In this document: piece after piece, positions 3,816 to 64,000 of the stretch
Numbering within the stretch: position 1 is the stretch's first letter
How the letters are laid out: each line of letters starts with the position of its first letter
NCBI GenBank assembly: GCA_030390025.1
Contig: CM059440.1
Location: 43,586,001-43,650,000, forward strand
Length of the DNA stretch: 64,000 nt
Source of the DNA: Squalus acanthias
Lineage: Eukaryota
Reading direction: 5' to 3'
Position numbers and translations under genes: made by a program
Notes under the pieces: model-generated
Databases searched by the model: none
Told to the model about the DNA's origin: nothing
What the model saw: the letters and a program-made list of their open reading frames with translations, nothing else

Positions 3816-4430
3816 TTCACACTGCCGTACTCACCGTGCTAATCACTACTAACACTGCCGTACTCACCGTGCTAATCACTGTTCACACTGCCGTACTCAC
3901 CGTGCTAATCACTGTTCACACTGCCGTACTCACCGTGCTAATCACTACTAACACTGCCGTACTCACCGTGCTAATCACTACTAACACTGCCGTACTCACC
4001 GTGCTAATCACTACTAACACTGCCGTACTCACCGTGCTAATCACTGTTCACACTGCCGTACTCACCGTGCTAATCACTGTTCACACTGCCGTACTCACCG
4101 TGCTAATCACTACTAACACTGCCGTACTCACCGTGCTAATCACTACTAACACTGCCGTACTCACCGTGCTAATCACTACTAACACTGCCGTACTCACCGT
4201 GCTAATCACTGTTCACACTGCCGTACTCACCGTGCTAATCACTACTAACACTGCCGTACTCACCGTGCTAATCACTACTAACACTGCCGTACTTACCGTG
4301 CTAATCACTAACACTGCCGTACTCACCGTGCTAATCACTGTTCACACTGCCGTATTCACCGTGCTAATCACTGTTCACACTGCCGTACTCACCACGCTAA
4401 TCACCGTGCTAATCCCTACCAACACTGCCG
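3816..4430. repeat. 33-bp minisatellite, ~18 copies, two unit variants
   Basis: Unit ACTGCCGTACTCACCGTGCTAATCACT followed by ACTAAC or GTTCAC. Confidence 0.95.
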
Positions 4431-9974: not shown

Positions 9975-10067
9975 GATGATCTGCACGTCAGCGTCTGGTA
10001 CCGTGGAACCCCGGAACCCTGCATCGTAGGAGAGCGTGTACCGAAGGAGTCCACCGTAAGAAGTCAC
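9975..10067 (-). CDS. HSPG2: Perlecan exon (L4 domain): VTSYGGLLRYTLSYDAGFRGSTVPDADVQII
   Basis: 93 nt, phase 0-0, acceptor ttcttttgcacag, donor gtaagt. Carries the L4 signature SYGG.LRY. Confidence 0.95.
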
Positions 10068-13135: not shown

Positions 13136-16100
13136 GACACCATCCTCATCAACACCAGACACCATCCTCATCGACATCAGACACCACCATCCTCATCAAC
13201 ACCAGACACCATCCTCATCGACACCAGACACCATCCTCATCAACACCAGACACCACCATCCTCATCAACACCAGACACCATCCTCATCGACACCAGACAC
13301 CATCCTCATCGACACCAGACACCATCCTCATCAACACCAGACACCATCCTCATCGACATCAGACACCACCATCCTCATCAACACCAGACACCATCCTCAT
13401 CGACATCAGACACCACCATCCTCATCAACACCAGACACCATCCTCATCAACACCAGACACCATCCTCATCAACACCAGACACCACCATCCTCATCAACAC
13501 CAGACACCATCCTCATCAACACCAGACACCATCCTCATCAACACCAGACACCATCCTCATCAACACCAGACAACACCATCCTCATCAACACCAGACAACA
13601 CCATCCTCATCAACACCAGACAACACCATCCTCATCAACACCAGACAACACCATCCTCATCAACACCAGACACCATCCTCATCAACACCAGACACCATCC
13701 TCATCAACACCAGACACCATCCTCATCAACACCAGACAACACCATCCTCATCAACACCAGACACCATCCTCATCGACACCAGACACCATCCTCATCGACA
13801 CCAGACACCATCCTCATCGACACCAGACACCATCCTCATCGACACCAGACACCATCCTCATCGACACCAGACACCATCCTCATCGACACCAGACACCATC
13901 CTCATCGACACCAGACACCATCCTCATCGACACCAGACAACACCATCCTCATCGACACCAGACACCATCCTCATCAACACCAGACACCATCCTCATCAAC
14001 ACCAGACACCATCCTCATCAACACCAGACACCACCATCCTCATCTACACCAGACACCACCATCCTCATCTACACCAGACACCACCATCCTCATCAACACC
14101 AGACACCATCCTCATCAACACCAGACAACACCATCCTCATCAACACCAGACAACACCATCCTCATCAACACCAGACAACACCATCCTCATCAACACCAGA
14201 CACCATCCTCATCAACACCAGACACCATCCTCATCAACACCAGACAACACCATCCTCATCAACACCAGACAACACCATCCTCATCAACACCAGACAACAC
14301 CATCCTCATCAACACCAGACACCATCCTCATCAACACCAGACAACACCATCCTCATCAACACCAGACACCATCCTCATCGACACCAGACACCACCATCCT
14401 CATCGACACCAGACACCACCATCCTCATCGACACCAGACACCATCCTCATCGACACCAGACACCATCCTCATCGACACCAGACACCATCCTCATCGACAC
14501 CAGACACCATCCTCATCGACACCAGACACCATCCTCATCGACACCAGACACCACCCTCATCAACACCAGACACCATCCTCATCAACACCAGACACCATCC
14601 TCATCAACACCAGACACCATCCTCATCAACACCAGACACCATCCTCATCAACACCAGACACCATCCTCATCAACACCAGACAACACCATCCTCATCGACA
14701 CCAAACACCATCCTCATCAAAACCAGACAACACCATCCTCATCAACATCAGACACCATCCTCATCGACACCAGACACCATCCTCATCAACACCAGACACC
14801 ATCCTCATCAACACCAGACACCATCCTCATCAACACCAGACACCATCCTCATCAACACCAGACAACACCATCCTCATCAACACCAGACAACACCATCCTC
14901 ATCAACACCAGACAACACCATCCTCATCAACACCAGACACCATCCTCATCAACACCAGACACCATCCTCATCTACACCAGACAACACCATCCTCATCTAC
15001 ACCAGACAACACCATCCTCATCTACACCAGACAACACCATCCTCATCAACATCAGACACCATCCTCATCAACACCAGACACCATCCTCATCAACATCAGA
15101 CACCATCCTCATCTACACCAGACAACACCATCCTCATCTACACCAGACAACACCATCCTCATCTACACCAGACAACACCATCCTCATCTACACCAGACAA
15201 CACCATCCTCATCTACACCAGACAACACCATCCTCATCTACATCAGACAACATCCTCATCAACACCAGACACCATCCTCATCAACATCAGGCACCATCCT
15301 CATCTACACCAGACAACACCCTCATCTACATCAGACAACACCATCCTCATCTACATCAGACAACACCATCCTCATCGACACCAGACACCATCCTCATCGA
15401 CACCAGACACCATCCTCATCGACACCAGACACCATCCTCATCGACACCAGACACCATCCTCATCGACACCAGACACCACCCTCATCAACACCAGACACCA
15501 TCCTCATCAACACCAGACACCATCCTCATCAACACCAGACACCATCCTCATCAACACCAGACACCATCCTCATCAACACCAGACACCATCCTCATCAACA
15601 CCAGACAACACCATCCTCATCGACACCAAACACCATCCTCATCAAAACCAGACAACACCATCCTCATCAACATCAGACACCATCCTCATCGACACCAGAC
15701 ACCATCCTCATCAACACCAGACACCATCCTCATCAACACCAGACACCATCCTCATCAACACCAGACACCATCCTCATCAACACCAGACAACACCATCCTC
15801 ATCAACACCAGACAACACCATCCTCATCAACACCAGACAACACCATCCTCATCAACACCAGACACCATCCTCATCAACACCAGACACCATCCTCATCTAC
15901 ACCAGACAACACCATCCTCATCTACACCAGACAACACCATCCTCATCAACATCAGACACCATCCTCATCAACATCAGACACCATCCTCATCTACACCAGA
16001 CAACACCATCCTCATCTACACCAGACAACACCATCCTCATCTACACCAGACAACACCATCCTCATCTACACCAGACAACACCATCCTCATCTACATCAGA

Positions 16101-19100
16101 CAACATCCTCATCAACACCAGACACCATCCTCATCAACATCAGGCACCATCCTCATCTACACCAGACAACACCCTCATCTACATCAGACAACACCATCCT
16201 CATCTACATCAGACAACACCATCCTCATCAACACCAGACACCATCCTCATCAACACCAGACACCATCCTCATCAACACCAGACAACACCATCCTCATCAA
16301 CACCAGACACCATCCTCATCAACATCAGACACCATCCTCATCAACACCAGACAACACCATCCTCATCAACACCAGACAACACCATCCTCATCAACACCAG
16401 ACACCATCCTCATCAACACCAGACAACACCATCCTCATCAACGCCAGACACCATCCTCATCAACACCAGACACCACCATCCTCATCGACACCACACACCA
16501 CCATCCTCATCGACACCAGACACCATCCTCATCGACACCAGACACCATCCTCATCGACACCAGACACCATCCTCATCGACACCAGACACCATCCTCATCG
16601 ACACCAGACACCATCCTCATCGACACCAGACACCACCCTCATCGACACCAGACACCATCCTCATCAACACCAGACACCATCCTCATCAACACCAGACACC
16701 ATCCTCATCAACACCAGACACCATCCTCATCAACACCAGACACCATCCTCATCGACACCAAACACCATCCTCATCAAAACCAGACAACACCATCCTCATC
16801 AACATCAGACACCATCCTCATCGACACCAGACACCATCCTCATCAACACCAGACACCATCCTCATCAACACCAGACACCATCCTCATCAACACCAGACAC
16901 CATCCTCATCAACACCAGACAACACCATCCTCATCAACACCAGACAACACCATCCTCATCAACACCAGACAACACCATCCTCATCAACACCAGACACCAT
17001 CCTCATCAACACCAGACACCATCCTCATCAACACCAGACAACACCATCCTCATCAACACCAGACAACACCATCCTCATCAATACCAGACACCATCCTCAT
17101 CAACACCAGACACCATCCTCATCTACACCAGACAACACCATCCTCATCTACACCAGACAACACCATCCTCATCTACACCAGACAACACCATCCTCATCAA
17201 CATCAGACACCATCCTCATCAACACCAGACACCATCCTCATCAACATCAGACACCATCCTCATCTACACCAGACAACACCATCCTCATCTACACCAGACA
17301 ACACCATCCTCATCTACACCAGACAACACCATCCTCATCTACACCAGACAACACCATCCTCATCTACACCAGACAACACCATCCTCATCTACATCAGACA
17401 ACATCCTCATCAACACCAGACACCATCCTCATCAACATCAGGCACCATCCTCATCTACACCAGACAACACCCTCATCTACATCAGACAACACCATCCTCA
17501 TCTACATCAGACAACACCATCCTCATCAACACCAGACACCATCCTCATCAACACCAGACAACACCCTCATCAACACCAGACAACACCATCCTCATCTACA
17601 TCAGACAACACCATCCTCATCAACACCAGACAACACCATCCTCATCAACACCAGACAACACCATCCTCATCAACACCAGACACCATCCTCATCAACACCA
17701 GACACCATCCTCATCAACACCAGACACCATCCTCATCAACACCAGACACCATCCTCATCAACACCAGACACCATCCTCATCAACACCAGACAACACCATC
17801 CTCATCCACATCAGACACCATCCTCATCGACACCAGACAACACCATCCTCATCGACATCAGACAACACCATCCTCATCCACATCAGACACCATCCTCATC
17901 AACACCAGACACCATCCTCATCAACATCAGACACCATCCTCATCAACACCAGACACCATCCTCATCAACATCAGACACCATCCTCATCAACACCAGACAC
18001 CATCCTCATCTACACCAGACAACACCATCCTCATCTACACCAGACAACACCATCCTCATCTACACCAGACAACACCATCCTCATCTACACCAGACAACAC
18101 CATCCTCATCTACACCAGACAACACCATCCTCATCTACACCAGACAACACCATCCTCATCTACACCAGACAACACCATCCTCATCTACACCAGACAACAC
18201 CATCCTCATCTACATCAGACAACATCCTCATCAACATCAGACACCATCCTCATCAACACCAGACACCATCCTCATCTACACCAGACAACACCATCCTCAT
18301 CTACATCAGACAACACCATCCTCATCAACACCAGACACCATCCTCATCAACACCAGACACCATCCTCATCAACACCAGACACCATCCTCATCTACATCAG
18401 ACAACACCATCCTCATCAACACCAGACACCATCCTCATCTACACCAGACAACACCATCCTCATCAACACCAGACACCATCCTCATCAACACCAGACACCA
18501 TCCTCATCAACACCAGACAACACCATCCTCATCAACACCAGACAACACCATCCTCATCTACATCAGACAACACCATCCTCATCTACATCAGACAACACCA
18601 TCCTCATCGACATCAGACAACACCATCCTCATCTACATCAGACAACACCATCCTCATCTACATCAGACAACACCATCCTCATCTACATCAGACAACACCA
18701 TCCTCATCTACATCAGACAACACCATCCTCATCTACATCAGACAACACCATCCTCATCTACATCAGACAACACCATCCTCATCTACATCAGACAACACCA
18801 TCCTCATCTACATCAGACACCATCCTCATCTACATCAGACAACACCATCCTCATCTACATCAGACAACACCATCCTCATCTACATCAGACAACACCATCC
18901 TCATCTACATCAGACAACACCATCCTCATCTACATCAGGCAACACCACCCTCATCTACATCAGACAACACCATCCTCATCTACATCAGACAACACCATCC
19001 TCATCTACATCAGACACCATCTCCTCATCTACATCAGACAACACCATCCTCATCTACATCAGACAACACCATCCTCATCTACACCAGACAACACCATCCT

Positions 19101-19390
19101 CATCTACATCAGACACCATCCTCATCGACATCAGACAACACCATCCTCATCTACATCAGACACCACCATCCTCATCGACATCAGACACCACCATCCTCAT
19201 CTACATCAGACAACACCATCCTCATCTACATCAGACAACACCATCCTCATCTACACCAGACAACACCATCCTCATCTACACCAGACAACACCATCCTCAT
19301 CCACATCAGACAACACCATCCTCATCTACATCAGACGACACCATCCTCATCTACATCAGACACCATCCTCATCTGCATCAGGCACCACCA
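13136..19390. repeat. ~6.25-kb minisatellite of 22/25-bp units
   Basis: Unit ACACCATCCTCATC(A/G/T)ACA(C/T)CAG with an optional 3-nt insertion. The + strand is C/A-rich and has no stop codons. Confidence 0.98.
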
Positions 19391-20007: not shown

Positions 20008-20091
20008 CTTGTTCCCCAGGTACTGGTGAGGCAGTCGCCAATAGAAATTGTTTTCAGGTAGGAGGCTGAAGCCCTTGTAAAGCAGAGCATA
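20008..20091 (-). CDS. HSPG2: Candidate alternative perlecan exon: YALLYKGFSLLPENNFYWRLPHQYLGNK (second copy of an L4 segment)
   Basis: 84 nt, phase 0-0, strong acceptor cctcttttcctatcccag, donor AAG/gtaacc. FYWRLP..YLGNK parallels YYWQLP..FQGDK in the 36-kb exon. Confidence 0.88.
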
Positions 20092-20395
20092 CTGGGATAG
20101 GAAAAGAGGCAGACACAAGATGAACAGAGAAAGTAAACACAGAGCAACAGTCAATGGCACATTCAAGGACATGCTTTGAAATTCCTTCCCCAGCATTGTT
20201 TCAGGAAGCAGTGCCCCCCATTCCCTGCCGATGAAACACACACGAGAGTTTCATAGAATTATTAGAAAATGCAGGGCCTTTTTAAAGCTACCAAATTATT
20301 ATAGTATATCAGAAGTTCAGTATCTTCAGTAAAGCCACATTATTCAGCAAAGGAAATACTGAACTGAGCACAAGATTAATTCAATGCCAAGAACA

Positions 20396-20500
20396 CAAGT
20401 TCTGATGAAGGGTCATCGACCTGAAATGTTGACTCTGTTTCTCTCTCCACAGATGCTGCCTGACCTGCTGAGTGTCTCCAGCATTTTCTGTTTTTATTGC
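20396..20500 (+). mobile_element. Penelope-derived terminal fragment with a hammerhead-like motif
   Basis: AGTT-CTGATGA-AGGGTCATCGACCT-GAAA-TG-TT-GACT, similar to 5868-5970. Confidence 0.75.
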
Positions 20501-22336
20501 AAGATTAATTTACCACTTTCTACCCTTTGTGGTCAGCTTAGTGTTGGACATGCACAGAAACCCAGCGATAAGCTCGAGAGTCTCCAAGCCGAACTACTGA
20601 GAGCTGTAAACTGGTCGAGTTTCTATGTGCCGGATACGGAATGCACAGCCCACTTACTGAAGCCTCGGTGCAGATTGGCAAGACCAAAGAAGCCCGGGTT
20701 GGGACTTTAGCTCAAAGCTCACAAAGTCTTCCTGCAGAGCTGTGGAAACTTTCCCACTGCTTGTCCTCCCAGGTCCTTCCTGTCCAATAGGGTATGAGGT
20801 GGTGGGACGACCTGGAGTTGAGCAGAAAGATTCCCAGCCTCCATCGAGGGCCCTGTCTCATTTTACAAATGATGGCTTTAAGAATCCAGGATATGGATAG
20901 CTTGTTGGATAAGAATAAAAGCAGATGCCAACAAGCTTCTTGTGTGGTAATCGGGATGATGAAAGATGGAAAACACTTTTCTGCCTGGTCTAAAAAATGT
21001 ATTTTTTCTGAATGGAGACCGCCCCAGGTTCTAAACATGGGTGGTGAAAGGTCACTTGGAAAAATGGTTCACTTTATTTCCCCAATTTCTCCTCCTTTTC
21101 AAATATCTTCTCATCTCTCTGCAATTTCCCAGGCTTCTGAAATCCAGGCTATTTATTATTCTAAAGTACAGTGAAAATTAACCGAAGGAGGAAATATTCC
21201 TGCCACTTACTGTGGCAATTAGAAATCGCAAGGCATGGACTGATCTTTAATCACAATTAAAGGAGTTCCCCATCTCTTTCGAAGCAGCCAGGAACTTTCA
21301 CTAAAACCGTCGCTGGGATTTTCCACTGGCAGAAACCTGGCAAACATTCCAGAGTCAACCTCATTCTTGTTAAGTTTGGCAGGCTTCCGGCAGAATTCCC
21401 ACCTGTGGCGGGGACCCCAGCGAGAAGGGGAGGTGTGACGATGTTGCAGGCCTCAGGGGCGAGTGGGGCTGCTGAATAGGAGGTCAACTTGTTTTTATGA
21501 TTTTTTTTTTTTTCTACAGGACTGGGGAAATCCAGTTAGGTTTCTTGGCTGTGCTCCATTTCCTTGCTGAAAAGCTGCCTGAAACCACCGTACCTCCTTC
21601 AGGGAACCAATAAAATGTAAATCTCCCCCTGCCTGCCAAACCAATGCTGGAATCCAATTACACCAACTGGCCTGCCTTCCATCCAGCGCTGTCAGGGCGA
21701 ACGATGGAAAATGTGATGCCCGACATCAATCCGTCATTACCACGCAATTTGAAGACGCCCGCCACATTAGGGCGGACACACCCGACAGCCAATATTATTT
21801 CCAACGGGAAGCCCTGGAAGAGACGGTGACCAGCGGAACATCTCCCGCACTCAGAACAGTTAACAGAAGAAGTGGTGTAGCAGGTCCCCTTCTCAAGGGT
21901 GTCACCCCAACTCAGTGGCTAATGAGTGCCCTCTTTCAATGATTCACAAATGGCACGGGGCAAACAGGACATCTCAAGTCCAAACATGCACTTCAGAGCC
22001 AATCACAACAAAGCCGCACACATATTAGTTCCAACTAAAACTCAAACCAAATGGGATAAAGATAAGTATAGCCAGCAGGGGATTTATCACCATGCTAAAA
22101 CCTCATGCAGAACGGCCTACATTTTGCAGTGATCTCAAGTTACTTTCTACATTATCTTACTTTGCACGCAAACATGCTGCTTTGTTGAATTTTTTAAAAT
22201 TATTTTGGGTCAGTTTACAAGGTGAATTGCGACAACAACCCACGATTGCAGGCACTTCGAAGAGTTGAGAAACTCTTGTTGACTGGGAATCTTGCCCAAA
22301 GGTCTTGAATTTGTAATCCAACAAGCAGCTTTCTGA

Positions 22337-22565
22337 TACAAAAGCAAAACTCTGCGGATGCTGGAAATCGGAATAAAACCAGACAAAGCTGGAAATACTC
22401 AGCGGGTCAGGCAGCATTTGTGGAGAGAGAAACAGAGTCAACGTTTCAGATCAATGACCCTTCGTCAGAACTGGAAAAAGGTCATCGACTGGAACCGTTG
22501 ACTCTGTTTCTCTCTCCATAGATGCTGCCTGAGCTGCTGAGTGTTTCCAGCATTTTCTGTTCTTT
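22337..22565. mobile_element. Inverted pair of Penelope terminal fragments
   Basis: A minus-strand copy (hammerhead core at ~22436-22472) is followed by a plus-strand copy of the same 3' sequence. Confidence 0.75.
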
Positions 22566-23166
22566 GGCAGCTTTCTGAAGTCATTCACATCCAAGACATG
22601 CACAAGGTCACGGAGATACTAGAATATTCCATGCACAAGCTAACCACGGCTACCTTCTCAAGGCCAGCAGGCCTTGGGCCCAACATGGAGGAAGAAATTA
22701 GGTTTGATGAGTCCTGAGCTTGCAGTGAAGGGACCCGAGGAATCTTTCTCATCTGTACGTACATGCAGAGAAAATCAATACTTAATTTCATCAATTTATA
22801 ATGGAACTGGTTTAAAAAAATGCAAATCCCCACCTCCAAACTGAGAATAACACCATGGACATTGTTTTTAAACTCCCAACCTCCTCCCTTCCCATCATGA
22901 CTCAGACACTTACACTAGCCTTCACAGTGGCTGCTCTTGTCCAAGTGATCACTCATGTGTGTGAGCCAGGACAGGGACGTTCCACAATCAATAGGACGAG
23001 GGAGGCCCAACATGAAATCCTCTGCAGCTGCCCAATTTCCAGTACAAGTAGGAGAAATCTACCCGGCTTTCCCCCCTCCCCAGACAGATGTTGCTCTGCC
23101 TGATGAAAGCACATATTCAAGATGGCGAGTAGGTAAACCCAGAGCCTTCGTGTCCTGCATCACTCC

Positions 23167-23637
23167 GCACGCACCAGGGGCCCAGCACGCACCAGGGGCC
23201 CAGCACGCACCAGCGGCCCAGCACGCACCAGCGGCCCAGCACGCACCAGCGGCCCAGCACGCACCAGGGGCCCAGCACGCACCAGCGGCCCAGCACGCAC
23301 CAGGGGCCCAGCACGCACCAGCGGCCCAGCACGCACCAGCGGCCCAGCACGCACCAGGGGCCCAGCACGCACCAGCGGCCCAGCACGCACCAGCGGCCCA
23401 GCACGCACCAGCGGCCCAGCACGCACCAGCGGCCCAGCACGCACCAGCGGCCCAGCACGCACCAGGGGCCCAGCACGCACCAGCGGCCCAGCACGCACCA
23501 GCGGCCCAGCACGCACCAGGGGCCCAGCACGCACCAGCGGCCCAGCACGCACCAGGGGCCCAGCACGCACCAGCGGCCCAGCACGCACCAGCGGCCCAGC
23601 ACGCACCAGGGGCCCAGCACGCACCAGGGGCCCAGCA
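23167..23637. repeat. 18-bp GC-rich minisatellite, ~26 copies
   Basis: Unit GCACGCACCAG(C/G)GGCCCA. Confidence 0.97.
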
Positions 23638-23759
23638 TGGGGCACGATCAAGATTTACTTTCTTTATGCCCAAGGCTGATGGCTAGATTTCAATTCAAAA
23701 TTTCAAGTGATCAAGATTTTGCAAAATTTTGATTACAAAAACTATTCGGATAAACTTAC

Positions 23760-25770
23760 ACTGGCACATGTAATCCTAACATTCACCACCAGATCTGGCT
23801 GGACCACGTAAAGCACTGTCGGGTCTTGCTCTCGTCTGCCAAAATTGCTCACTATTCCAGAATCATTTTGGAATGCAAAGATAAACCCCAGCTTCTTTTC
23901 TCCATTGCTAACCGTCTTCTTAAACCCCTCTCCCGACAACAAGCGTGAGGAGCTCATGGACTTCTTTGTCTCTAAGATTGAGACCATCCGTTCAGCTGCC
24001 TTTGCCACTTCCCTTCCTTCCCCTAGCCCACCGGGGCAAACTTCCTCTAAGGTTCCCCCCTGCCCTAGTCCTGAACTCACATCTTTCTCCAGTTTCGCTC
24101 CGATCTCCCCTCATGACCTCTCCGCACTCATCATGTCCATGAGACCCACTTTCTGCTCCCTCGACCCTATTCCCACTAAACTGACCACCCAACTTCCTTT
24201 TCTGGCTCCCATGTTAACTGATATTGTTAACGGTTCTCTCTCCTCAGGTACTGTCCCCCTCTCCCTCAAATCTGCTATCATCACCCCTCTCCTCAAAAAA
24301 ACAACCCTTGACCCCTCCGTCCTTGCAAACTACCGCCCCATCTCCAACCCCCCTTTCCTCTCCAAAGTCTTTGAACGTGTTGTCGCCTCCCAAATCCGTG
24401 TCCATCTTTCTCGCAACTCCTGTTTGAATCCCTCCAATCAGGTTTCTGCCCCTGCCACAGTACCAAAACGGCTCTCATTAAAGTCACAAATGACATCCTC
24501 TGTGACTGTGACAAAGGTAAACTATCCCTCCTTGTCCTTCTCGACCTGTCTGCAGCCTTTGACACGGTTGACCACTCCATCCTCCTCCAACGCCTCTCCA
24601 CCATCGTCCAGCTGGGTGGGACAGCACTCGCCTGGTTCCATTCTCATCTATCTAATCGTAGCCAGAAAATCACCTGCAATGACTTCTCTTCCCACTCCCA
24701 CATCGTTACCTCTGGTGTCCCCGAAGGAGGTATCCTTGGCCCCCTCCTATTTCTCATCTACATACTGCCCCTTGGAGACATCATCCAGAAAACACAGCGT
24801 CAGTTCCTACATGTACGCTGACGACACCCAGCTCTACCTCACCACTACTTCTCTCGATCCCTCCACGGTTTCTAAATTGTCAGACTGATTGTCCAATATC
24901 CAGTACTGGATGAGCAGAAATTTTCTCCAATTAAACATTGGGAAGACTGAAGCCGTTGTTTTCGGTCCCCGCCACAAACTCTGTTCCCTTGCCACTGACT
25001 CCATCCCTCTCCCTAACATCTGTCTGAGGCTGAACCACACTGTTCGCAATCTTGGCATCATATTTGACCCTGAAATGAGCTTCCGACCACATATTCATGG
25101 CATAACTAAGACCGCCTATTTCCACCTCCGTAACATCGCCCGTCTCCGCCCTTGCCTCAGCTCATCTGCTGCTGAAACCCTCATCCATGCCTTTGTTACC
25201 TCTAGACTTGACTATTCCAACGCACTCCAGGCTGGCCTCCCACATTCTACCCTACGTAAACTTGAGGTCATCCAAAACTCGGCTGCCCGTGTCCTAACTC
25301 GCACCAAATCCCGTTCACCCATCGCTCCTGTGCTCGCTGACCTACATTGGCTCCCGGTTAAGCAACGCCTCGATTTCAAAATTCTCATCCTTGTTTTCAA
25401 ATCCCTCCATGGCCTCGTCCCTCCCTATCTCTGTAATCTCCTCCAGCCCCGCAACCCCCCCCCACACCCCCTGAGATATCTGCGCTCCTCTAATTCTGCC
25501 CTCTTGAGCATCTCTGATGATAATCGCTCCACCATTGGTGGCCGTGCCTTCTGTTGCCTAGGCCCTAAACTCTGGAATCCCTTCCCTAAACCTCTCCGCC
25601 TCCCTAACTCTCTCTCCTCCTTTAAGATGCTCCTTAAAACCTACCTCTTTGACCAAGCTTTTGGTCATCTGCCTTAATTTCTCCTTATGTGGCTCGGTGT
25701 CAAATTTTCTGTTTTATAATACTCCTGTGCAGCGCCTTAGGACGTTTTACTACGTTAAAGGCGCTATATT
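23760..25770 (+). mobile_element. L2 LINE, 5'-truncated, with frameshifted RT
   Basis: LDPIPT, NYRPISN, YADDTQLY, SRLDYSN and LHWLPV motifs; tail AAAGGCGCTATAT. Confidence 0.92.
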
Positions 25771-26304
25771 GCTGTTGCAATATTTACAGTGACTTTCTTT
25801 GTATTTGGCTAATCCTCCTCTAACCAAAAGGGCAGAAAAATCTGTGGACATGTCTGCAGCCCCTCAGTGAAGAGATCCTTCCCCGATTCATTCAATGGCA
25901 CGTATAAATAAGAAGTTTCATTAACCCAACTGAAGGCAGTCACCTGGGCAGCATCAGGCTCATCATGCCACGGACTGGTCATGCAACACTTGCCCCTCCT
26001 CTGCTGTATCTAAGGTCTCAATCGAGGCTGCAGCTCGAGTCTAACACCATGACCAGTAACATGCATTACCGTGGCAAATCACTGATAAAAATTTGGCAAA
26101 GACAAACTTTTTCCTGTTGTGCTGACTAAGGCACAAATGGCCGTCAACAATAGAAGGAAAAGAACTGCAGCTATCACGAGCATTTATGTAAGGAAATTGG
26201 GTACACACACAGAACTCCCAGCGTACAAATCAGAAATTCTTATTTAGGACGTATCAGCACGTTGTCCCGCTGAAGGAAGTTAACACATAAACATCACCAC
26301 AGAT

Positions 26305-26705
26305 TGATACAGCACAGGAGGCCATTTGGCCCATCATGTCTGTGCTGGCTCTTTGAAAGAGCTCTCCAATTAGTTCCACTTCCTTGCCCTTTCTCTCCCC
26401 CCCCCCCCCCCGCCCCCAAACCACTACAAATTTTTCCCCTTCAAGTATATATCCAATTCCCTTTTGAAAGTTATTGCTTCCACCACCCTTTCAGGCAGCG
26501 CGTTCCAGATCACATCTCACTGTGTAAAAGAATTCTCATCTCATCTCTGGTCCTTTTGCCAATTACCTTCAATCTGTGTCCTCTGGTTACTGGCCCTTCT
26601 GCCACTGGAAACAGTTTCTCCTCATTTACTCGATCAAAACCCTTCATAATTTTGAACATCTCTATTAAATCTCCCCTTAACCTTCTCTGCTCTCAGGAGA
26701 ACTAG
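26305..26705 (-). mobile_element. CR1 LINE 3' fragment
   Basis: Similar to 6903-7268. Confidence 0.85.
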
Positions 26706-27034
26706 AAAAACACCAGGAGGCATCAGACACCTTCATACAAACCCAACGCCATCCACCCCAAGCCTCAGCTGCTGAAGAAACCTCCAGGCTGACTACTGAA
26801 TCATGCTCGCCCCCCTCACAAGGCTGTCACCACAACTCAATGGGCGAATGAGAGCACCTTGCCTCCACCTCTCCCACCTGATGTAATGTTTTCCTGACTA
26901 ACCTGTTTGGACACCATCCACACCTTTCATTGCCGTGATTGTCTCTCTGCCGAGGTGTGATAAAGGGCAGTTAGAAAGATTAACTGTAATCATCTGGCAG
27001 TGTTCTCTGACTATATATGCTGTGCCTATATACA

Positions 27035-27166
27035 TCTCTTCACTTCACCTGACGAAGGAGCAGCGCTCCGAAAGCTTGTGATTTCAAATAAAGCTGTTGG
27101 ACTATAACCTGGTGTTGTGCGACTTCTCACATTTGTCCACCCCAGTCCAACACCGGCACCTCCACA
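27035..27166 (+). mobile_element. Short Penelope-type terminal fragment (second family) with a minimal hammerhead at 27045-27081
   Basis: TCAC-CTGACGA-A-GGAGC AGC GCTCC-GAAA-GC-TT-GTGA, followed by AATAAA. The Penelope assignment is inferred from this motif. Confidence 0.65.
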
Positions 27167-28059
27167 ACCTGAGACCAGAGCACCCTTGGTAAATAATGAT
27201 CCTGGCCCTGCCAATAGGAAGCTCTACCAAAGTGTGAAGAGCTGCACAGGACCCTCAATGTGGAAATACCATGCCACGTGCAAAGCAGCACATATTCTCC
27301 ATCGGCGATGACCTGCAAATGTATCAAATTTGTACTGCTCAATAATGAAATGAGATTTTGTGGGGGGAGGGGACCTGCTGATATATTCAAGTTGCAGTAC
27401 GTTGAACCTGAATCAAACCCCTACCTTTGGGCAGGCTGAAGAGTGGATATCTAACGGGGAACATTACATCTCGCTTCCCCATCGGCCTCAGTTTTAGGCG
27501 TGTGCTTTCTCTCGAGGTTCTTATTCCCTGACAGAGGGCAGGAGAACCGTTGGCCAGTTTTTGAACCTCTACCCATGCCACCCTTGAACTGATCTTTGGC
27601 CTTTGTGTAAAACTGTCCCAGTTCTGCACCTTCTCACTTCCCCTCTTGGTGGGAAGCATCTCCAATCCGTTTCTATCTTCTCCTGGTGACCCCAGAGGTT
27701 GATAAATTGACACAATATCACAAACACACACTTTGGGGGCACTGTATAAGCCACCAGCACACTTTGCCACTAGACCATTTGAAATCCAAACTTTACAATC
27801 CCCGACTTGCTAATATCACAGCTGACCTCAACTACTCGCCACTTGTGATAGTCCTTATTGACAGTCCGCTCGACACAAAACATCACACGATGAGAGCCTG
27901 GAAACCGGCCTGTCCTAATGCACAGGTTTTAATTACAGTTTTGGGCATTTTACCCAACGCAAAACTGTTACTTGGCTTTTTACTAATCCTAACCCCATAA
28001 ATGCAAGGATTTGCCTGAAATGCATGATTACATTTCCCACTGAAGCGAGATTTCCATAC

Positions 28060-28362
28060 CTTTGTGTGGTGGCCGGGATGAGAAAGCAGAGATGAGGGGC
28101 GAGAAGAACGGGAAGTAGCGGTTCTTGAAGAGGAAGAGGAGGGTATGGAATGAGATGATGTATTGCGAGAGGCAGAGGGAGCAGGAGGTCCAGCAGGACT
28201 TGCTGAGGCCAGTCGAGACAATGGATAGGATGGCTGGGACAGATTCCTACCACCGGGTGAGGTGGGATTGTGTGATTCGCGCAACTGCTCAGCAGTAAAG
28301 CCAGTTATAATCGCCCATATCTCGTCATCTATACGCTTCTGCTCTTCCAGATCAGGCACAGA
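28060..28362 (-). CDS. HSPG2: Candidate alternative perlecan exon, 101 aa: SVPDLEEQKRIDDEIWAIITGFTAEQLRE...Ser/Pro-rich...HHTK
   Basis: 303 nt, open, phase 0-0, acceptor ccttcacttccttgtag, donor AAG/gtatgg. Confidence 0.75.
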
Positions 28363-28904
28363 CTACAAGGAAGTGAAGGAACAAGTCATCTCTACATTAA
28401 AAAGCGTCACCACTGCAATCCAGCCACGAGCTTACCACATCACTAATGTACTAAATCTTAAACGTTAAATGAAATCACAACACAGGCAATGAAGATTAAT
28501 CGTGCAGTTTGTTTTCAAAAAAGTTCTGTAAATTTTCTTCCTCTTTTGAAGTGCTTCCTATATAGTTAGTTTCATGAATTTATTTATCCACATCAGTGTA
28601 TCCCATAATCGTATCCAGCTTTCACTGCTTTCCTTTGAAGGATTGTTACCCAACGTTAAATGTCCAAATTATTCCAAGTGTTAATCATAGTGTTAAGACC
28701 AAAAATACCACTCAAGACAACCAAACCATGCTGTAGAAACAATTAAGAGGGTTACTGGTGCGCTAATGTACCCTTTCCCTGCTTCACTTTGAGATCCAAC
28801 CGTGAAGGATAATTGTGAGGTTTTGGCTCGACCTTTGCTCGAAGGACGCCGGTAGATAATGGCAGCAGATCATCGCCATTCACCAGCACCACAGCCAACA
28901 ACCA

Positions 28905-29295
28905 GAATGGTCCCAGGGGTGAGGGACTTCAGTCATATTTAAAGACTGGAGAAGCTGTGATTTTTCTCCTTATAGAAGAGAAGGTTACGGGGAGGTTTAA
29001 TAGAGGTGTTCAAAATTAGGAGGGGTTTTGATAGAGTAGATAGGGAGAAACTGTTTCCACTGGCAAGATGGGTCAGTAACCAGAGGAGTTATTGTGATCT
29101 GGAATACACGACCTGCAAGGGTGGTGAAGCAGATTCAATAGTACCTTTCAAAAGGGAATTAGACATATAATTAAAAAGAAAAAATGTGCAGGGCTATGGG
29201 GAAAGAGCGGGAGAGTGGCACTAATTGGAGAGCTCTTTCAGAGAGCCGGCACAGGCATAGTGGGCCACATGGCCTCCTTCGGTGCTGTATGATTC
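28905..29295 (+). mobile_element. CR1 LINE 3' fragment, internally deleted
   Basis: RMVPG...RLEKL..., GAGAAACTGTTTCCACTGGCA and the CR1 tail. Confidence 0.82.
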
Positions 29296-29658
29296 GACAA
29301 CACCTGATTACTCAAGCTCTTGGGGAAGTTGTTTGAATAATTGGTGTCGGAAGCTAAGACAGTTCACTTCATGTAGAAGCGGAGCATGTACATTATATGG
29401 CAGCTGAACACCACTTGGACCAAGACCGAAGCTACGTGTATGACACACACGGGTCTCCAATCCCTATCGACATTAATATTGGGCCCTCATCAACAGCTCA
29501 AGTCATTCCCGTGCTCCATTTACAGCACAGCTGGCCAACACAAGCTATACAGTGAATTGGACACGGTCTAGTATATATTGTTTTATTGCTTTTATTATAC
29601 TTTTTTTGCGGTGAGGTATGAAAGAAAATTATGAAAATGCAGTTCTTACAATAACTGA

Positions 29659-30097
29659 ACACGGTGGCATAGTGGTTAGCACTGGTGCCTCACAGCGCCA
29701 GAGACCCGGGTTCGAATCTGACCTCGGGTGACTGTCTGTGTGGAGTTTGCACATTCTCCCCGTGTCTGCGTGGGTTTCCTCCGGGTGCTCCGGTTTCCTC
29801 CCACAGTCCAAAAATGTGTGGGTTAGGTTGATTTGGCTATGATAAATTGACCCTTAGTGTTAGGGGGGATTAAATATGTGGGGTTATGGGGATAGGATGG
29901 GATATGTTAGGGGGAATTAAATACGTGGGGTTACGGGGGTAGGGTGGGATATGTGTACTGTGGGGATTAAAGCAGGGACAGGGTACTGGATTTGGATGAT
30001 CAGCCATGATCGTATTGAATGGCGGAGCAGGCTCGACGGGCCGAATGGCCTACTCCTGCTCCTAGATTCTATGTTTCTATGTTTCTATGTTTCTATG
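29659..30097 (+). mobile_element. tRNA-derived V-SINE (HE1-like) with a CR1-derived tail
   Basis: A box TGGCATAGTGG, B box GGTTCGAATC, V-domain TGTGTGGAGTTTGCACATTCTCCCCGTGTCTGCGTGGGTTTCCTCCGGGTGCTCCGGTTTCCTCCCAC, tail (TTTCTATG)n. Confidence 0.9.
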
Positions 30098-30217
30098 AAA
30101 TAATCTTGTGAACTAGATTGATGGATTGGACGAGGTTAAATCTACTGTACAAATTGCTTGCACTACCCAGTCAATCAGATTCATGCTCCACACTGTGCCA
30201 TGCAGTCACGCTGCTAC

Positions 30218-30319
30218 CTTTGAGGATCGTTTAGCCCTAGGAAGAGATGACGTTGAGCCCAAGAGTTCCCAGATGGCCGCATCCTTCCTCAGCTGGTCCT
30301 CAGTCAAAGACGGGTCTTT
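30218..30319 (-). CDS. HSPG2: Candidate alternative perlecan exon: KDPSLTEDQLRKDAAIWELLGSTSSLPRAKRSSK
   Basis: 102 nt, phase 0-0, acceptor gcattcattag (weak), donor AAG/gtagca. Shares a motif with the 28-kb exon; TGCATG lies just downstream. Confidence 0.68.
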
Positions 30320-30884
30320 CTAATGAATGCAATTTTGCACGTTACTTTAGCACCGACAAAACCATCCTGCTCGCTCAGCGAGGTGCTCCGGTCAATCCAA
30401 CGCCACCACAAACATGTGCATACAAGAAACTGCAAGGTAGGCAAATCCCGGCAGATTCAGAGAATTCGGCCTGATCATCTTGCTGTGGTCAGCCAGGACG
30501 AGTAGATCAAAGCGTTCCAGGTCAACAATACAGCGGCTAGAATTTAACATGATCCGCCAACCAGCAAACACCATCAACACATGCTGAATGTTAATAGAAA
30601 CATCAGACAACTGCTCTTATATATTTCAATTTCAAGATCTGGAGATCCAAGTAAAAACAAATAGTTTTCCCATTCGTGACACTTTTATAACAGCAAAGAC
30701 AAACAGAATTATTGCTACCTTTACAAATACCAATCAAAAATCCCTGACCATTTAGGACTATCCCGTTTGCACAGCAGCCAACAGTTTCCACTTATTATGA
30801 TAAAATTAACTTACTCTGATTTTGGCTTTGAATCAATCTTCCCACCTCCGAGTGGGATGTTGAAAACCAGTCACAACTCACGCA

Positions 30885-31090
30885 TAGGAACAGGAGGCGG
30901 CCATTCAGCCCCTCGAGCCTGTTCCATCAATTGGATCATGGCTGATCTGTACCTCAAACCCATTTTCCCACCTTTGCTCCCAATCCCCTGATACCCTTAC
31001 CCAACAAAAATCTATCAATCTCAGCCCTGAAAGTTTCAATTGGCCCCCAGAATTCCCAGCCTTTAGGGGGAGCCAGTTCCAGATTTTATG
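30885..31090 (-). mobile_element. CR1 LINE 3' tail fragment
   Basis: Reverse complement of GATCAGCCATGATC...CTCGAGGGGCTGAATGGCC. Confidence 0.8.
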
Positions 31091-31537
31091 CCTGTGGCGG
31101 CAAACTTGTGCCGATTTCCTGTTCTGTTCAGCCACAAAGAAACACGATGCACGCGACTGGCTGGTAAACGCCGTGAAGCCCATTCACGGTGTAAATTTAG
31201 CAGATGAAGATTTTCTGGTCTTTACAGTGAATGATTGACATTCAGTTCTTTTAATACAGCGGGCTTGAGGGAGGGGAAGGAGGAAAGAGCAACTTAAAAA
31301 CATAACAATTTGCAAATCTGTAATAGGAAATGGATATTGAGGGAGGGGCTGGTGGGGGGGAGGGGCTGGTGGGGGTTTGAAAAGTAATATCTGCGGCAGG
31401 GAAAGAAGGAAGTAAATGAAAAAAATACAGACGGCTCTGCAGCAATTCAGCGGGGTTACTTCGGCAGTACCTCCCTCCCCTGTGACCTCCGCACTGAGAA
31501 AGACACGAGCAGCAACGTTGTGGGAATATCAAAAAAA

Positions 31538-31704
31538 GGAAAGAACTTGCATTTTGATAGAGCGCCTGTCACATCCTCAGGACGTCCCAAAATACTTCAC
31601 AGCCAATGATGTACTTCTGAAGCAGTGTCACTGTTACAGTGCAGGAAACACGGCAGCCAATGTGCTCCAAGCAAGCTCCCACAAACAGCAATGAGATAAT
31701 GACC
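31538..31704 (-). mobile_element. DeuSINE 3' fragment (L2-type tail)
   Basis: Reverse complement of ~40595-40762. Confidence 0.75.
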
Positions 31705-32538
31705 AGCTCTACCTCACCACCACCACTCTCACGGCCTCGGATCTGTCATGCTGCTTGTCCGACATCCAGTATTAGATGAGCAGAAACTTCCTCCAATTAA
31801 ATTTTGGGAAGACCGAAGCAACTGCATTCGGGTCCCACCACAAACTCCGTTCCCTAGATACAGATTTCATCCCTCTCCCTGGCCACTATCTGAGGCTGAA
31901 CCAGACCGTTCGCAAATTTGGCGTCCTATTTGACCCTTGGCTGAACTTCTGACCTCATAATCCTCTCCAACATCAAGACTCCATACTTCCACCTCCGTAA
32001 CACCGCCTGTCTCCGTCCATGCCTTTGTCTAGACTTGACGATACCAACGCTCTCTTGGCCGGCCTCCCATCTTCCACCCTCTGTAAGCTCGAGCTCATCT
32101 AAAACTCTGCCGTGTATCTTAACTGGCACCAAGTCCCGTTCTCCCGTCACCCCTGTGCTCGCTGACCGACATTGCCTCCCAGTCCAGCAACGCCTCAAAT
32201 TTAAAATTCTCCTCCTTGTGTTCAAATCCCTCCATGGCCGCCTCGCTCCTCCTCCTCCAGTCCTCTGACCCTTCTCGCTGCATTCCCAATTTCCTGCGCC
32301 CCACCGTTGGTGGCCGTGCCTTCAGTTATCTAGTCACCAAGCTCTGGAATTCCCTCCCTCTCTACCTCTCTCTCTCCTCCATTAAGATGCTCCTTAAAAC
32401 CTCCCTCTTTGACCAAGCAGGTCTTAATATCTCATGTGGTTTGGTGTCAAATTTTGTCTGATAACACTCTTGTGAAGCGCCTTGGGACGTTTTACTATGT
32501 TAGAGGCGCTACATAAATGCAAGTTGTTGTTGTTGTTG
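31705..32538 (+). mobile_element. Decayed L2 LINE 3' fragment
   Basis: Similar to 24830-25770; ends GGCGCTACATAAATGCAAG(TTG)n. Confidence 0.85.
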
Positions 32539-32837
32539 AATGATGTTGGTGAGGGATAAAATATTGGCCAAGACACCGGGATCCTGTTCCCAGACATCAG
32601 AACAAAGTGTAAAAGTTGCTGGGAAAAGAATGCAAATAAATCAGGTTTTAGAACTGTGCACAATGCACTCTTCTGAAAACTGTAGATGGATCTCTCGTTG
32701 GGGCACTGGGCTATGGGGACAAGATCTCCCGGTTTGGATGCGATTTTCAAGACAAAAGTTGGTTGGTCGCTCCCACGCCAATCTGTTTTGAATCTAAGCT
32801 TCTGATTGGCCGGAAAGCTGCTTTGAGCTACAAGGTC

Positions 32838-33372
32838 GCCGGGAGGTCAATGCGCAGCGGGAGCCGGGAGGTCAATGCGCAGCGGGAGCCGGGAGGTCGA
32901 TGCGCAGCGGGAGCCGGGAGGTCAATGCGCAGCGGGAGCCGGGAGGTCAATGCGCAGCGGGAGCCGGGAGGTCAATGCGCAGCGGGAGCCGGGAGGTCGA
33001 TGCGCAGCGGGAGCCGGGAGGTCGATGCGCAGCGGGAGCCGGGAGGTCAATGAGCAGCGGGAGCCGGGAGGTCAATGAGCAGCGGGAGCCGGGAGCCGGG
33101 AGGTCAATGCGCAGCGGGAGCCGGGAGCCGGGAGGTCGATGCGCAGCGGGAGCCGGGAGCCGGGAGGTCAATGTGCAGCGGGAGCCGGGAGGTCGATGCG
33201 CAGCGGGAGCCGGGAGCCGGGAGGTCGATGCGCAGCGGGAGCCGGGAGGTCGATGCGCAGCGGGAGCCGGGAGCCGGGAGGTCGATGCGCAGCGGGAGCC
33301 GGGAGGTCAATGCGCAGCGGGAGCCGGGAGCCGGGAGCCGGGAGGTCGATGTGCAGCGGGAGCCGGGAGCCG
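32838..33372. repeat. 25-bp G-rich minisatellite with extra 7-bp GGGAGCC sub-units
   Basis: Unit GGGAGGTC(A/G)ATGCGCAGCGGGAGCC; later units grow to 32 and 39 bp. Confidence 0.95.
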
Positions 33373-34215
33373 AGGTGAAGGAAGGCAAGTTACAACATTT
33401 CATCTCAAACTAAATAACAGAAGAGGATTAGAGGAGGCGGAAGAGAGTATAGTTAAAATAGGAAGCAGAGAAAACAGGTTAAAAAAAGAGAATAGGCGAG
33501 TGAAAGGAACAACAGGGTAAATGCTGGCAAAGGGTTTTCTTAATATTTATTTCAGTGTCACAATACGGGAATTGAAAACAATCTAAATCGATTGAGCTGA
33601 GGTGGTGAGGAGTTCACCTGGTGGCAGTTCCGGGTTCATCAATAGTTACAGAACATTGGGGGTGATACATCAATGGGTCTCCCCTTGCCCCCGTTCCCAG
33701 CCTTGACAACAACGAACATCAAACTCTACTCTATGGCCCTTATCCATTTCTTGTTCTGGTTGTGAAAATCTGAACTTTCTCTTTAGAGAAAATATAAATT
33801 TCTCATTGCAGCGTGTTTATTTAACGGTGTAACTCTCTTTCCTTCAGTTATTTTTCAGTCTTCTTTCCTGGTCTCCCTTTGACAAACACTCAGAGCTGAG
33901 AGGACAGGCAGGCAACCCACTCTCATAGTCCGGCTGCTGCAGGAAGCACTGGCGAGTCGCCCGGGGACAACACCAGGCCTTTGCTCAGCGCCTGGCCACC
34001 GTAACATGGTGGAGACCACAGTTGCGCGATCGCATCCTAGGACTGTGTGCCGTAGTATCCAGCGTTTATCTCAAGGTACAATTTCACTTCAATAACTTCG
34101 CAAAAGGCGGCACGTTTTACTACTGAAGCCAACAGTGCAAAGCCAAACTCAAGCAGACAAACACAGCGGCCAAATCACAGAGAGGGCATCACAGCATGCC
34201 CATCGCACACTCTAC

Positions 34216-34254
34216 CTTGTGTCCACGTCTAATACGAGCAAAGAATTGCTCCCT
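34216..34254 (-). CDS. HSPG2: Candidate alternative perlecan microexon: REQFFARIRRGHK
   Basis: 39 nt, phase 0-0, strong acceptor ttattccctttcttcag, donor AAG/gtagag. Confidence 0.62.
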
Positions 34255-36145: not shown

Positions 36146-36340
36146 CTTGTCTCCCTGAAATGCCTCTGGAAGCTGCCAGTAGTAGGACTCCTGGGTGTAC
36201 TGCCCAAACCGGTCGAACGAGAGCTGTGGCTGCCTCTCCCTCACCGTCACGGTGAATCCCGAGGTGATGCGGGTAGTGCGCTGACGATTCACCAGCGAAA
36301 AGTTTTGGAAGTTGCTCGGTGGAACGAATGGACTCGCAAC
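36146..36340 (-). CDS. HSPG2: Perlecan exon (start of third L4 domain): VASPFVPPSNFQNFSLVNRQRTTRITSGF...SYYWQLPEAFQGDK
   Basis: 195 nt, phase 0-0, acceptor catttctgtag, donor gtacag. Resembles human FQGFALVNPQR...SFYWQLPETYQGDK (recalled). Confidence 0.96.
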
Positions 36341-37725: not shown

Positions 37726-38224
37726 ACTTGCCCTTTGAACTAGTCCAGGACCAGCATTATTGCTTGATGCCAGGAGCTGCAGTGTTACTGGAGGTCCATC
37801 CTGTGTCAAAGTCTTTTCCATGTGTAATTCCTATTCTACAAATGTAGGGTCAGTCACTAACGCTAGAGATAGGTGCAGTGCGGTGACAATTTACAAGGGC
37901 AAAGTTTTGGAAGATCATTGGCGGAACAAATGGAATCACAACCTACAGAAATTAAGAGCATTAACTGCGTCAGCTTTCCCATATGCTGATCAGCCATGTT
38001 AGCTCACATCTGACACCAGTTACATGAACTCTCCCTGATAAAGAGGCAATGCCAGTGGGTGAGCACCAACGAAGGGTTGTTTCCCAGGGCAAGGTCCTGG
38101 GTGTAGCAGAGCAAGGAAAGGGCATTCGACCGGTGGGGGACGTGAATTTTTTCAAGGGCGATGTCCCCTGTGGGATGATTGAAGCTACTGCTCGCACACA
38201 GGATGACGAAGAGTGAACACGTAC

Positions 38225-63829: not shown

Positions 63830-64000
63830 CTGGATTGTGGGACTGGAGTAGGTTGTGTGGATTGTGGGAGGGGAGTCAGCTGTAGGGATTGTGGGAGGGG
63901 AGTAGGCTGTAGGGATTGTGGGACTGGAGTAGGCTGTAGGGATTGTGGGATGGGAGTAGGGTGTATGGATTGTGGGACTGGAGTAGGCTGTAGGGATTGA
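63830..64000. repeat. 27-bp minisatellite running off the window end
   Basis: Unit approximately GGGATTGTGGGACTGGAGTAGGCTGTA, ~6 degenerate copies. Confidence 0.85.

Follow-up and report, generated by a model that had tools for sequence, protein, structure and literature searches.

Integrin alpha chains and the insulin receptor are furin-processed, disulfide-linked two-chain proteins. The optional exons that we describe here in perlecan (HSPG2) resemble them in placing R-x-K/R-R, the proprotein-convertase (furin-type) consensus, within a disulfide-spanned loop; they differ in that cleavage is predicted only, and in that the site lies on optional exons and comes along with a spare copy of the structural segment that they interrupt. 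Alternative splicing of HSPG2 has itself been reported, as the published vertebrate variants (miniperl, mast-cell short forms and domain I variants) arise in this way, but those accounts deal with domain I, domain V or short transcripts rather than with the third laminin IV domain (L4-3) considered here (PMC6266596, PMC8521200), and the human variants listed in the section concerned are restricted to domain I/V and short ones (PMC6266596). The same review presents the perlecans unc-52 and trol as likewise diversified through regulated splicing (PMC6266596), yet among 10 non-vertebrate-type matches, a sample with cyclostomes outside it, we find one copy of the segment per L4 domain and no comparable cassette carrying a second. 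Domain III is described as an inflexible rod (PMC6266596) with growth factors and other matrix proteins among its ligands (PMC9776037). The L4 domains are cysteine-free and split laminin-EGF (LE) modules 1, 5 and 9 (PMC7037224). RefSeq predicted perlecan isoforms carry an insert identical to the shark cassette in position and exon order, 209 aa long in two sharks; examples are XP_072442898.1 (Chiloscyllium X5), XP_032903835.1 (Amblyraja X4), XP_078095298.1 (Mustelus X4), XP_069802948.1 (Dendropsophus X4), XP_053431699.1 (Nycticebus X4) and XP_037586653.1 (Cebus X3). These models are automated, leave the insert unnamed and state no function, and in the placental ones exon D is missing, as is a second strict dibasic site. 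The cassette is already present in automated annotation, and no description of it was found in the papers searched.

The sequence analyzed is a 64,000-nt window of the Squalus acanthias genome (GCA_030390025.1, contig CM059440.1, 43,586,001-43,650,000), and all positions are given within this window. Five optional exons, A to E, sit in the 26-kb intron between constitutive exons U and V (Table 1), which are orthologous to perlecan/HSPG2 L4-3 and lie in LE-L4-LE context. Exon U occurs once in the genome, and exon V matches Pfam Laminin_B with an E-value of 2e-4, just below the curated cut-off; scanned singly, exons B, C, D, E and U returned no Pfam family. All five cassette exons (5/5) have AG/GT borders, symmetric phase 0 and an open frame, and together they give 627 nt, or 209 aa, equal in length to the two shark RefSeq models and with no cysteine. 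The initial annotation had reported exons A, B, C and E, and their coordinates, lengths, ag|...AAG|gt borders, phase, open frames and translations all agree with ours. Its insert size of ~176 aa was too small, as the further exon it suspected it had missed does exist: exon D was recovered by tblastn with a skate isoform as the query (E 3e-13). When the 26-kb intron was scanned simply for splice signals, 6 candidates emerged; exons C and E ranked 1 and 2, and exons A, B and D stayed under the threshold. Splice signals alone are insufficient to pick all of the cassette exons. Separately, a giant Ser-Gly/acidic exon in the 6.2-kb minisatellite between exons E and V was considered and rejected, as each sense frame contains ~190 stops.

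Table 1 Exons of the perlecan L4-3 region in the 64,000-nt Squalus acanthias window.
Exon	Position	Strand	Length (nt)	Length (aa)	Description
U (constitutive)	36146-36340	-		65	Ends GDK; N-terminal 65 aa of L4-3, the final ~28 aa of which recur as a second copy in exon E
A (cassette)	34216-34254	-	39	13	Basic; dibasic site 1 RIRR
B (cassette)	30218-30319	-	102	34	Conserved predicted helix, variable linker, dibasic site 2 RAKR
C (cassette)	28060-28362	-	303	101	Conserved acidic/aromatic helix, then disordered tail
D (cassette)	22654-22752	-	99	33	Linker; phase 0, ag/gt, ends AAG/gt
E (cassette)	20008-20091	-	84	28	Second copy of the L4 segment preceding exon V
V (constitutive)	9975-10067	-			L4-3 continuation

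The cassette is widely distributed among jawed vertebrates. An insert at the U/V point is present in 155 of 299 vertebrate perlecan database proteins having both flanks (111 distinct inserts), a count that comes from searches enriched for the insert and takes no account of kinship. Seven of the 306 proteins examined were dropped for a missing anchor, either upstream (P0308, P0329) or downstream (P0001, P0004, P0116, P0135, P0186); three of these, P0004, P0116 and P0135, contain cassette exons without exon E, and exon V is absent from them as well. The insert-bearing taxa are chimaera, skate, sharks, ray-finned fish, coelacanth, amphibians, reptiles, ostrich, opossum and placentals, including primates. 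The initial annotation had foreseen predicted fish isoforms, and these exist, as do counterparts in all jawed-vertebrate classes. Its contrast with mammalian perlecan, in which GDK directly precedes VAAYGG, applies to the canonical isoform only, since predicted mammalian isoforms carry the insert. All five shark exons match bamboo-shark isoform P0224 in the same order with 71-93% identity. Exon A has a mean pairwise identity of 67% (81 rows), and the exon B linker preceding site 2 one of 19%. Within exon C, one Asp and one Trp of the helix are invariant, and the tail is Ser/Thr/Pro-rich with two N-glycosylation sequons. Placentals keep exons A, B, C and E, and primates retain at least these; exon D was not seen in placental models, and a 175-aa database model, P0337, also lacks it. 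The 15 proteins listed from a 234-member primate cluster include no human one, and the insert is missing from every mouse and rat protein among the 15 listed of 58, neither of which shows absence; exon C alone as a protein-search query gave no match among proteins of 178-2000 aa.

It is extremely improbable that these isoforms are artefacts of annotation or noise from the splicing of decayed intronic sequence. The models are indeed computational, the splice scores of exons A and B are weak, and all 13 of the 13 listed substitutions in the exon C tail are non-synonymous; however, exon order, phase and protein sequence are conserved from chimaera to primates, which largely refutes this explanation, and a related DNA run has 8 indels in the flanks of exon C and 0 in the exon itself. 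The five exons constitute a conserved, frame-preserving cassette that is likely switched on by regulated splicing. Models that include and skip the insert occur within one cluster in Chiloscyllium (5/4), Mustelus (10/5), Amblyraja (6/2), Dendropsophus (10/5) and Nycticebus (8/4), these being computational database predictions and not reads. Additionally, a 5306-nt contig of a relative (X5-17) aligns only at 28060-28364, covering exon C exactly to its splice sites, and the two matching bases past the exon are AG, which also ends the upstream exons; the match ends at both borders of exon C, the type of its run is unrecorded, and no exon-exon join is directly seen in the alignments, which cover exon C only. 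In X1 and X2, short identical contigs extend across the exon C/intron border and so represent unspliced RNA or DNA, and the sequencing-run search returned no matching run recorded as RNA among those listed.

Of the 306 proteins, 304 have exon U, and those with the insert carry it together with exon E, which rules out mutually exclusive duplicated exons with E replacing U in the mRNA. We consider it very unlikely that an internal promoter drives a short isoform containing the downstream exons and that these are absent from full-length mRNAs. The first codon of exon D is ATG both here and in the skate model, and the intron is long, but exon D has no initial Met in other classes, no cassette exon is signal-peptide-like, database models connect exon U with the cassette, and X5-17 extends ~3 kb upstream of exon C.

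Exon E resembles the 3' half of exon U, with 0 of 2000 shuffles reaching its score, and it is conserved about equally to the constitutive copy (64% vs 69%). Exon E sequences group together in a tree (98/96) and are as similar to the L4-2 segment (41%) as to the 3' half of exon U (38%) over the 28 columns compared. The Pfam Laminin_B match runs unbroken from a start inside exon E. An AlphaFold model of sturgeon P0008, which contains exons C and E and is without A, B and D, places exon E in the L4-3 sandwich with the insert outside it (pLDDT of 83-93 for E, 91-94 for the U strands, 42-48 for the U 3' half and 31-40 for the C tail), and this model matches the perlecan crystal structure 9I5A (E 2e-36). 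A strand swap is thus predicted by the modeling, in which exon E substitutes in L4-3 for the C-terminal 28 residues of exon U, and with E in that place the remaining insert would loop out of the domain. Together with the conservation, the include/skip models and the spliced-looking contig, the duplicate nature of exon E bears out the earlier proposal of an alternative module that both breaks into L4-3 and partly restores it. A second AlphaFold model, P0005 (A+B+E), has a mean pLDDT of 52 and folded exon U, not E; this is a gene model with a truncated L4-3.

These observations also bear on whether inclusion could act as a negative switch that unfolds or destabilizes L4-3, so that cleavage parts the two halves or blocks secretion. 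The insertion point is mid-domain, exon E did not fold with the downstream strands in P0005, and the human fragment that contains L4-3 has its first melting step at 49 C, whereas the other two fragments of region 3 first melt at >80 C (PMC7037224). Exon E nonetheless closes 110 of the 111 distinct inserts and is as conserved as the constitutive copy, which counts against a domain-wrecking role, for which it would be needless, and the frame is kept by all cassette exons. We therefore regard a negative switch as improbable.

Dibasic sites are strongly concentrated in the insert. A strict R-x-K/R-R is found in 89 of 99 inserts bearing exon A or B, against 17.7 expected from shuffling, at a density of 33.7 per 1000 aa in inserts vs 0.06 in the rest of those proteins. 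For site 2 of non-mammals, P4 is Arg in 67/69 and P1 is Arg in 65/69, P2 is divided between Lys (34) and Arg (34), and P3 takes 13 different residues. The motif is conserved beyond what composition would give, which suggests that cassette perlecan is a candidate convertase substrate; the processable isoform put forward in the initial annotation would depend on these motifs. Site 2 has decayed in mammals, with Gln as its P2 residue in 18/20 mammalian rows. A strict site is kept by 12 of 20 placental inserts and none (0/20) has two, and the P1 position of site 1 holds Trp or Gln in 4/18. Eight distinct inserts consist of exon E alone and hence have no dibasic site.

The same arginines could instead be kept for binding in an insertion that is real and uncut, with the basic and acidic helices of exons A to C on a flexible glycosylated stalk engaging heparan sulfate, a receptor or each other. 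Exons A and C are predicted to be helical, with site 1 in a low-confidence predicted helix in P0005; the non-basic positions of exon A are conserved along with the basic ones, the Asp and Trp of exon C are invariant, the B and C helices resemble each other (12/2000 shuffles), and mammals retain exons A, B, C and E though site 2 decays. The helical amphipathicity of A, B and C is not above that of shuffled sequences. Against an uncut insertion, site 2 follows the poorly conserved linker with fixed P4 and P1, a P2 of Lys or Arg only and a free P3, which is the pattern expected of a convertase site, and such sites are nearly absent from the remaining perlecan. On this evidence we consider an uncut insertion unlikely, although it deserves weight.

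The reading we prefer, with a probability of roughly 60%, is that a splice switch common to jawed vertebrates converts perlecan into a convertase-cut, disulfide-linked two-chain protein in which exon E replaces the exon U segment in L4-3. Exon E would take over the position of the last 28 residues of U while the remainder loops out, and furin-type convertases would cut after RIRR and RAKR within the secretory pathway, a double cut releasing the 34-aa exon-B peptide. In the bamboo-shark model, the N-chain would comprise domains I, II and most of III (~162 kDa core), and the C-chain (~308 kDa) would begin with the exon-C helix and the glycosylated flexible tail. Laminin-EGF modules pair their cysteines in the standard 1-3, 2-4, 5-6, 7-8 pattern, and what would hold the chains together is the initial strands of exon U plus the single disulfide of the LE module bracketing L4-3. 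Perlecan would thereby become nicked and gain a new binding surface in domain III. We offer more tentatively, as a possible but doubtful extension, that the cassette is a splice-controlled release latch predating the split of sharks and bony fish: the spare beta-strand segment would keep L4-3 folded during cutting, the heparan-sulfate-bearing N-terminal half, attached through a single disulfide and a few strands, could be shed, the 34-residue peptide and the new helical N-terminus would serve as ligands, and a human coding region may have been overlooked.

With a conserved cassette that brings in convertase sites together with a replacement strand, a core basement-membrane protein would have a second, nicked form, and an exon that restores the fold broken by its neighbors would be a clear case of how a large insert enters a structured domain. 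Because at least exons A, B, C and E persist in primates, a presumed intron of a human disease gene may harbor a coding region that has been overlooked; if the human exons are used, sequencing for Schwartz-Jampel and dyssegmental dysplasia would class variants there as intronic. The coordinates in Table 1 offer exact RT-PCR, proteomic and mutational tests. A rat Hspg2 exon is regulated by RBPMS (PMC6613909); it is distinct from the cassette exons, as its primers map near residue 190, at a 17-aa optional exon, and not to L4-3. A weak RBFOX-motif hint bearing on regulated inclusion was also noted.

The cassette that interrupts the third laminin IV domain (L4-3) of the minus-strand perlecan gene is real and ancient. 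The four segments proposed in the initial annotation, exons A, B, C and E, lie between the constitutive exons U, which begins L4-3 and ends in GDK, and V, and all were verified in length, splice borders, phase and open frame. The proposed insert of about 176 aa proved too small, and the accompanying caution about overlooked exons was justified: in the skate isoform P0112, C and E are separated by ~30 residues, which map by tblastn (E = 3e-13) to a fifth exon, D. The complete cassette is 627 nt and encodes 209 aa, the same length as the inserts of Chiloscyllium and Mustelus models. Its exons are collinear with the bamboo-shark isoform P0224 (71–93% identity); another shark model, P0337, is without exon D. 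A crude splice-site scan of the U–V intron gave six candidates, with C and E on top and A and B missed, and splice signals alone are therefore little proof. Exon U is single-copy in a search of the 3.7-Gb Squalus acanthias genome, and the proteins nearest to the window's gene are shark, skate and chimaera perlecans.

Positions of exons and intronic features in the window
Feature	Position	Strand	Length	Remarks
Constitutive exon U	36340-36146	minus		ends GDK
Cassette exon A	34254-34216	minus	39 nt	AG/GT, phase 0, open, ends AAG/gt
Cassette exon B	30319-30218	minus	102 nt	AG/GT, phase 0, open, ends AAG/gt
Cassette exon C	28362-28060	minus	303 nt	AG/GT, phase 0, open, ends AAG/gt
Cassette exon D	22752-22654	minus	99 nt	AG/GT, phase 0
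Cassette exon E	20091-20008	minus	84 nt	AG/GT, phase 0, open, ends AAG/gt
Constitutive exon V	from 10067	minus		
Partial copy of U	37877-37964	minus	88 nt	upstream of U
Minisatellite	13137-19373		6.2 kb	between E and V
Other intronic minisatellites	3819-4404, 23167-23637, 32838-33372, 56462-56815, 63832-63999			

A protein search with exon U returned 64 matches, one of them a frog isoform with the entire cassette after GDK. Queries that contained insert regions brought 216 proteins in one search and 213 in another, of which the best 120 of each were used, and cluster listings supplied further isoforms. Among 306 proteins of at least 600 aa, both anchors are present in 299 and an insert in 155 (111 distinct), a proportion that is not a prevalence because the queries were biased toward insert-bearing proteins. 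The suspected occurrence in predicted fish isoforms was confirmed in Callorhinchus, Amblyraja, Chiloscyllium, Mustelus, Polypterus, Polyodon, Lepisosteus, many teleosts and Latimeria, and carriers extend to caecilians, axolotl, frogs, turtles, squamates, Struthio and mammals (Monodelphis, carnivores, bats, ungulates, voles, marmot, Nycticebus and Cebus). Alternative use of the module is supported by five protein clusters that each hold predicted models with and without it; RefSeq alternative models are generally backed by transcript evidence. The cassette is already in automated annotation, as predicted isoforms. No description of it was found in the full-text literature searched (few subscription journals, no genome-wide splicing tables), which included PMC6266596, PMC6613909, PMC7037224, PMC9776037, PMC8521200 and PMC12002351, the last of them not relevant to the subject, and an earlier mention may exist. 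The insert is absent from mouse, rat and other murid proteins among those listed in the rodent cluster of P0268. Loss in murids is possible on these sequences and, if true, would partly explain why the cassette was neglected. Rodent models with the insert come from vole, marmot, kangaroo rat and Scotinomys.

Sequencing-run contigs were compared over 27400-29000, the exon C region. In run X5 (50 million letters, RNA/DNA type unrecorded), a 5306-nt contig aligns at 28060-28364 only, with 10 differences and no gaps, and both ends run on into sequence elsewhere; the two bases matching beyond the exon are AG, common to intron ends and upstream exon ends. This pattern at the exon C borders is consistent with a spliced transcript. 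Short identical contigs in runs X1 and X2 span the exon C acceptor or sit in the intron, which shows that they are unspliced RNA or DNA. In DNA run X7, eight indels are listed in the exon C flanks and none in the exon. Among substitutions listed for two relatives, all 13 distinct changes in the exon C tail (28060-28281, minus) are non-synonymous (P ~0.01 if neutral), and the helix part has one synonymous change.

The claim that the module rebuilds part of the interrupted domain is supported: the L4 segment preceding V recurs in exon E as a second copy (0/2000 shuffles score as high); ten non-vertebrate-type matches have a single copy per L4 domain. Exon E is conserved at 64%, versus 69% for the constitutive copy (102 pairs), and ends 110 of the 111 distinct inserts, the lone exception being a bullfrog genome-project model. 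In a tree, 24 E copies form one group (support 98/96), which fits a single origin predating the shark/bony-fish split. Exon E is the entire insert in P0136, P0140, P0151, P0162, P0181, P0196, P0223 and P0288; in these isoform models, which come from frog, sturgeon, teleosts, turtles and New World monkeys, L4-3 simply carries 28 aa duplicated in tandem. Mean identity is 67% for exon A, 50% for the B helix and 51% for the C helix, and falls to 19% in the B linker and 31% in both the C tail (54% Ser/Thr/Pro, two sequons) and D. The B helix resembles the C helix (12/2000 shuffles as high), which suggests an old duplication within the cassette.

Sturgeon P0008, which has U, C, E and V, was modeled with AlphaFold from a 41-row alignment, and the model matches the perlecan L4-2 region in crystal structure 9I5A. 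It places the first strands of U (pLDDT 91–94) and exon E (83–93) inside the domain, and the last 28 residues of U (42–48) and the C tail (31–40) outside; the C helix scores 68–76. The Pfam Laminin_B match begins within exon E and is then continuous. A second model, P0005 (A+B+E, L4-3 truncated), is of poor quality, has U folded in place of E and does not serve as confirmation. When the cassette is included, E likely takes over from the tail of U in L4-3, and that tail would loop out together with A–D. Convertases would then cut after RIRR (site 1, exon A) and RAKR (site 2, exon B), releasing 34 residues and leaving two chains of ~162 and ~308 kDa that would stay linked; by the LE (laminin-EGF) disulfide pattern, one bond, C1367–C1781 in P0224, would span the cut. 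The window's cassette contains no cysteine. According to PMC7037224, L4 domains are also cysteine-free and interrupt LE modules, in which every cysteine is believed to form a bond.

This cleavage and strand-swap mechanism is plausible. Strict R-x-K/R-R, the furin consensus, occurs in 89/99 inserts with A or B (shuffled expectation 17.7) and at 33.7 per 1000 aa in inserts versus 0.06 in the remainder of the same proteins, counted over related proteins uncorrected for kinship. By group, it is found in chondrichthyans (6/6), teleosts (30/32), other ray-fins (3/3), coelacanth (1/1), amphibians (22/22), reptiles and birds (14/14), marsupial (1/1) and placentals (12/20). At site 2 of non-mammals, in columns that also take in some teleost exon A sites, P4 and P1 are almost invariant, P2 is K or R and P3 is unconstrained. 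Against cleavage, no mammalian insert has two strict sites together. The main rival, that the cassette is an uncut helical binding module, fits mammals better. Four residues past site 1, an N-glycosylation sequon begins exon B in 53/78 orthologue rows and is absent in the window.

Four RBFOX-type hexamers, in the flanks of exon B (30218) and exon D, lie no more than 250 nt from the cassette's exons, against 0.86 expected for all five exons (P ~0.01, post hoc); this excess hints weakly at control in muscle or neural tissue. In the intron preceding U there is a degenerate partial copy of the U acceptor and first ~60 nt (79.5% identity), with AG kept and a U-like frame that soon stops. The 6.2-kb minisatellite mixes 22- and 25-nt units; because its repeat unit lacks stops, each of the three frames on the plus strand stays open over >2100 codons, and the sense strand is closed.
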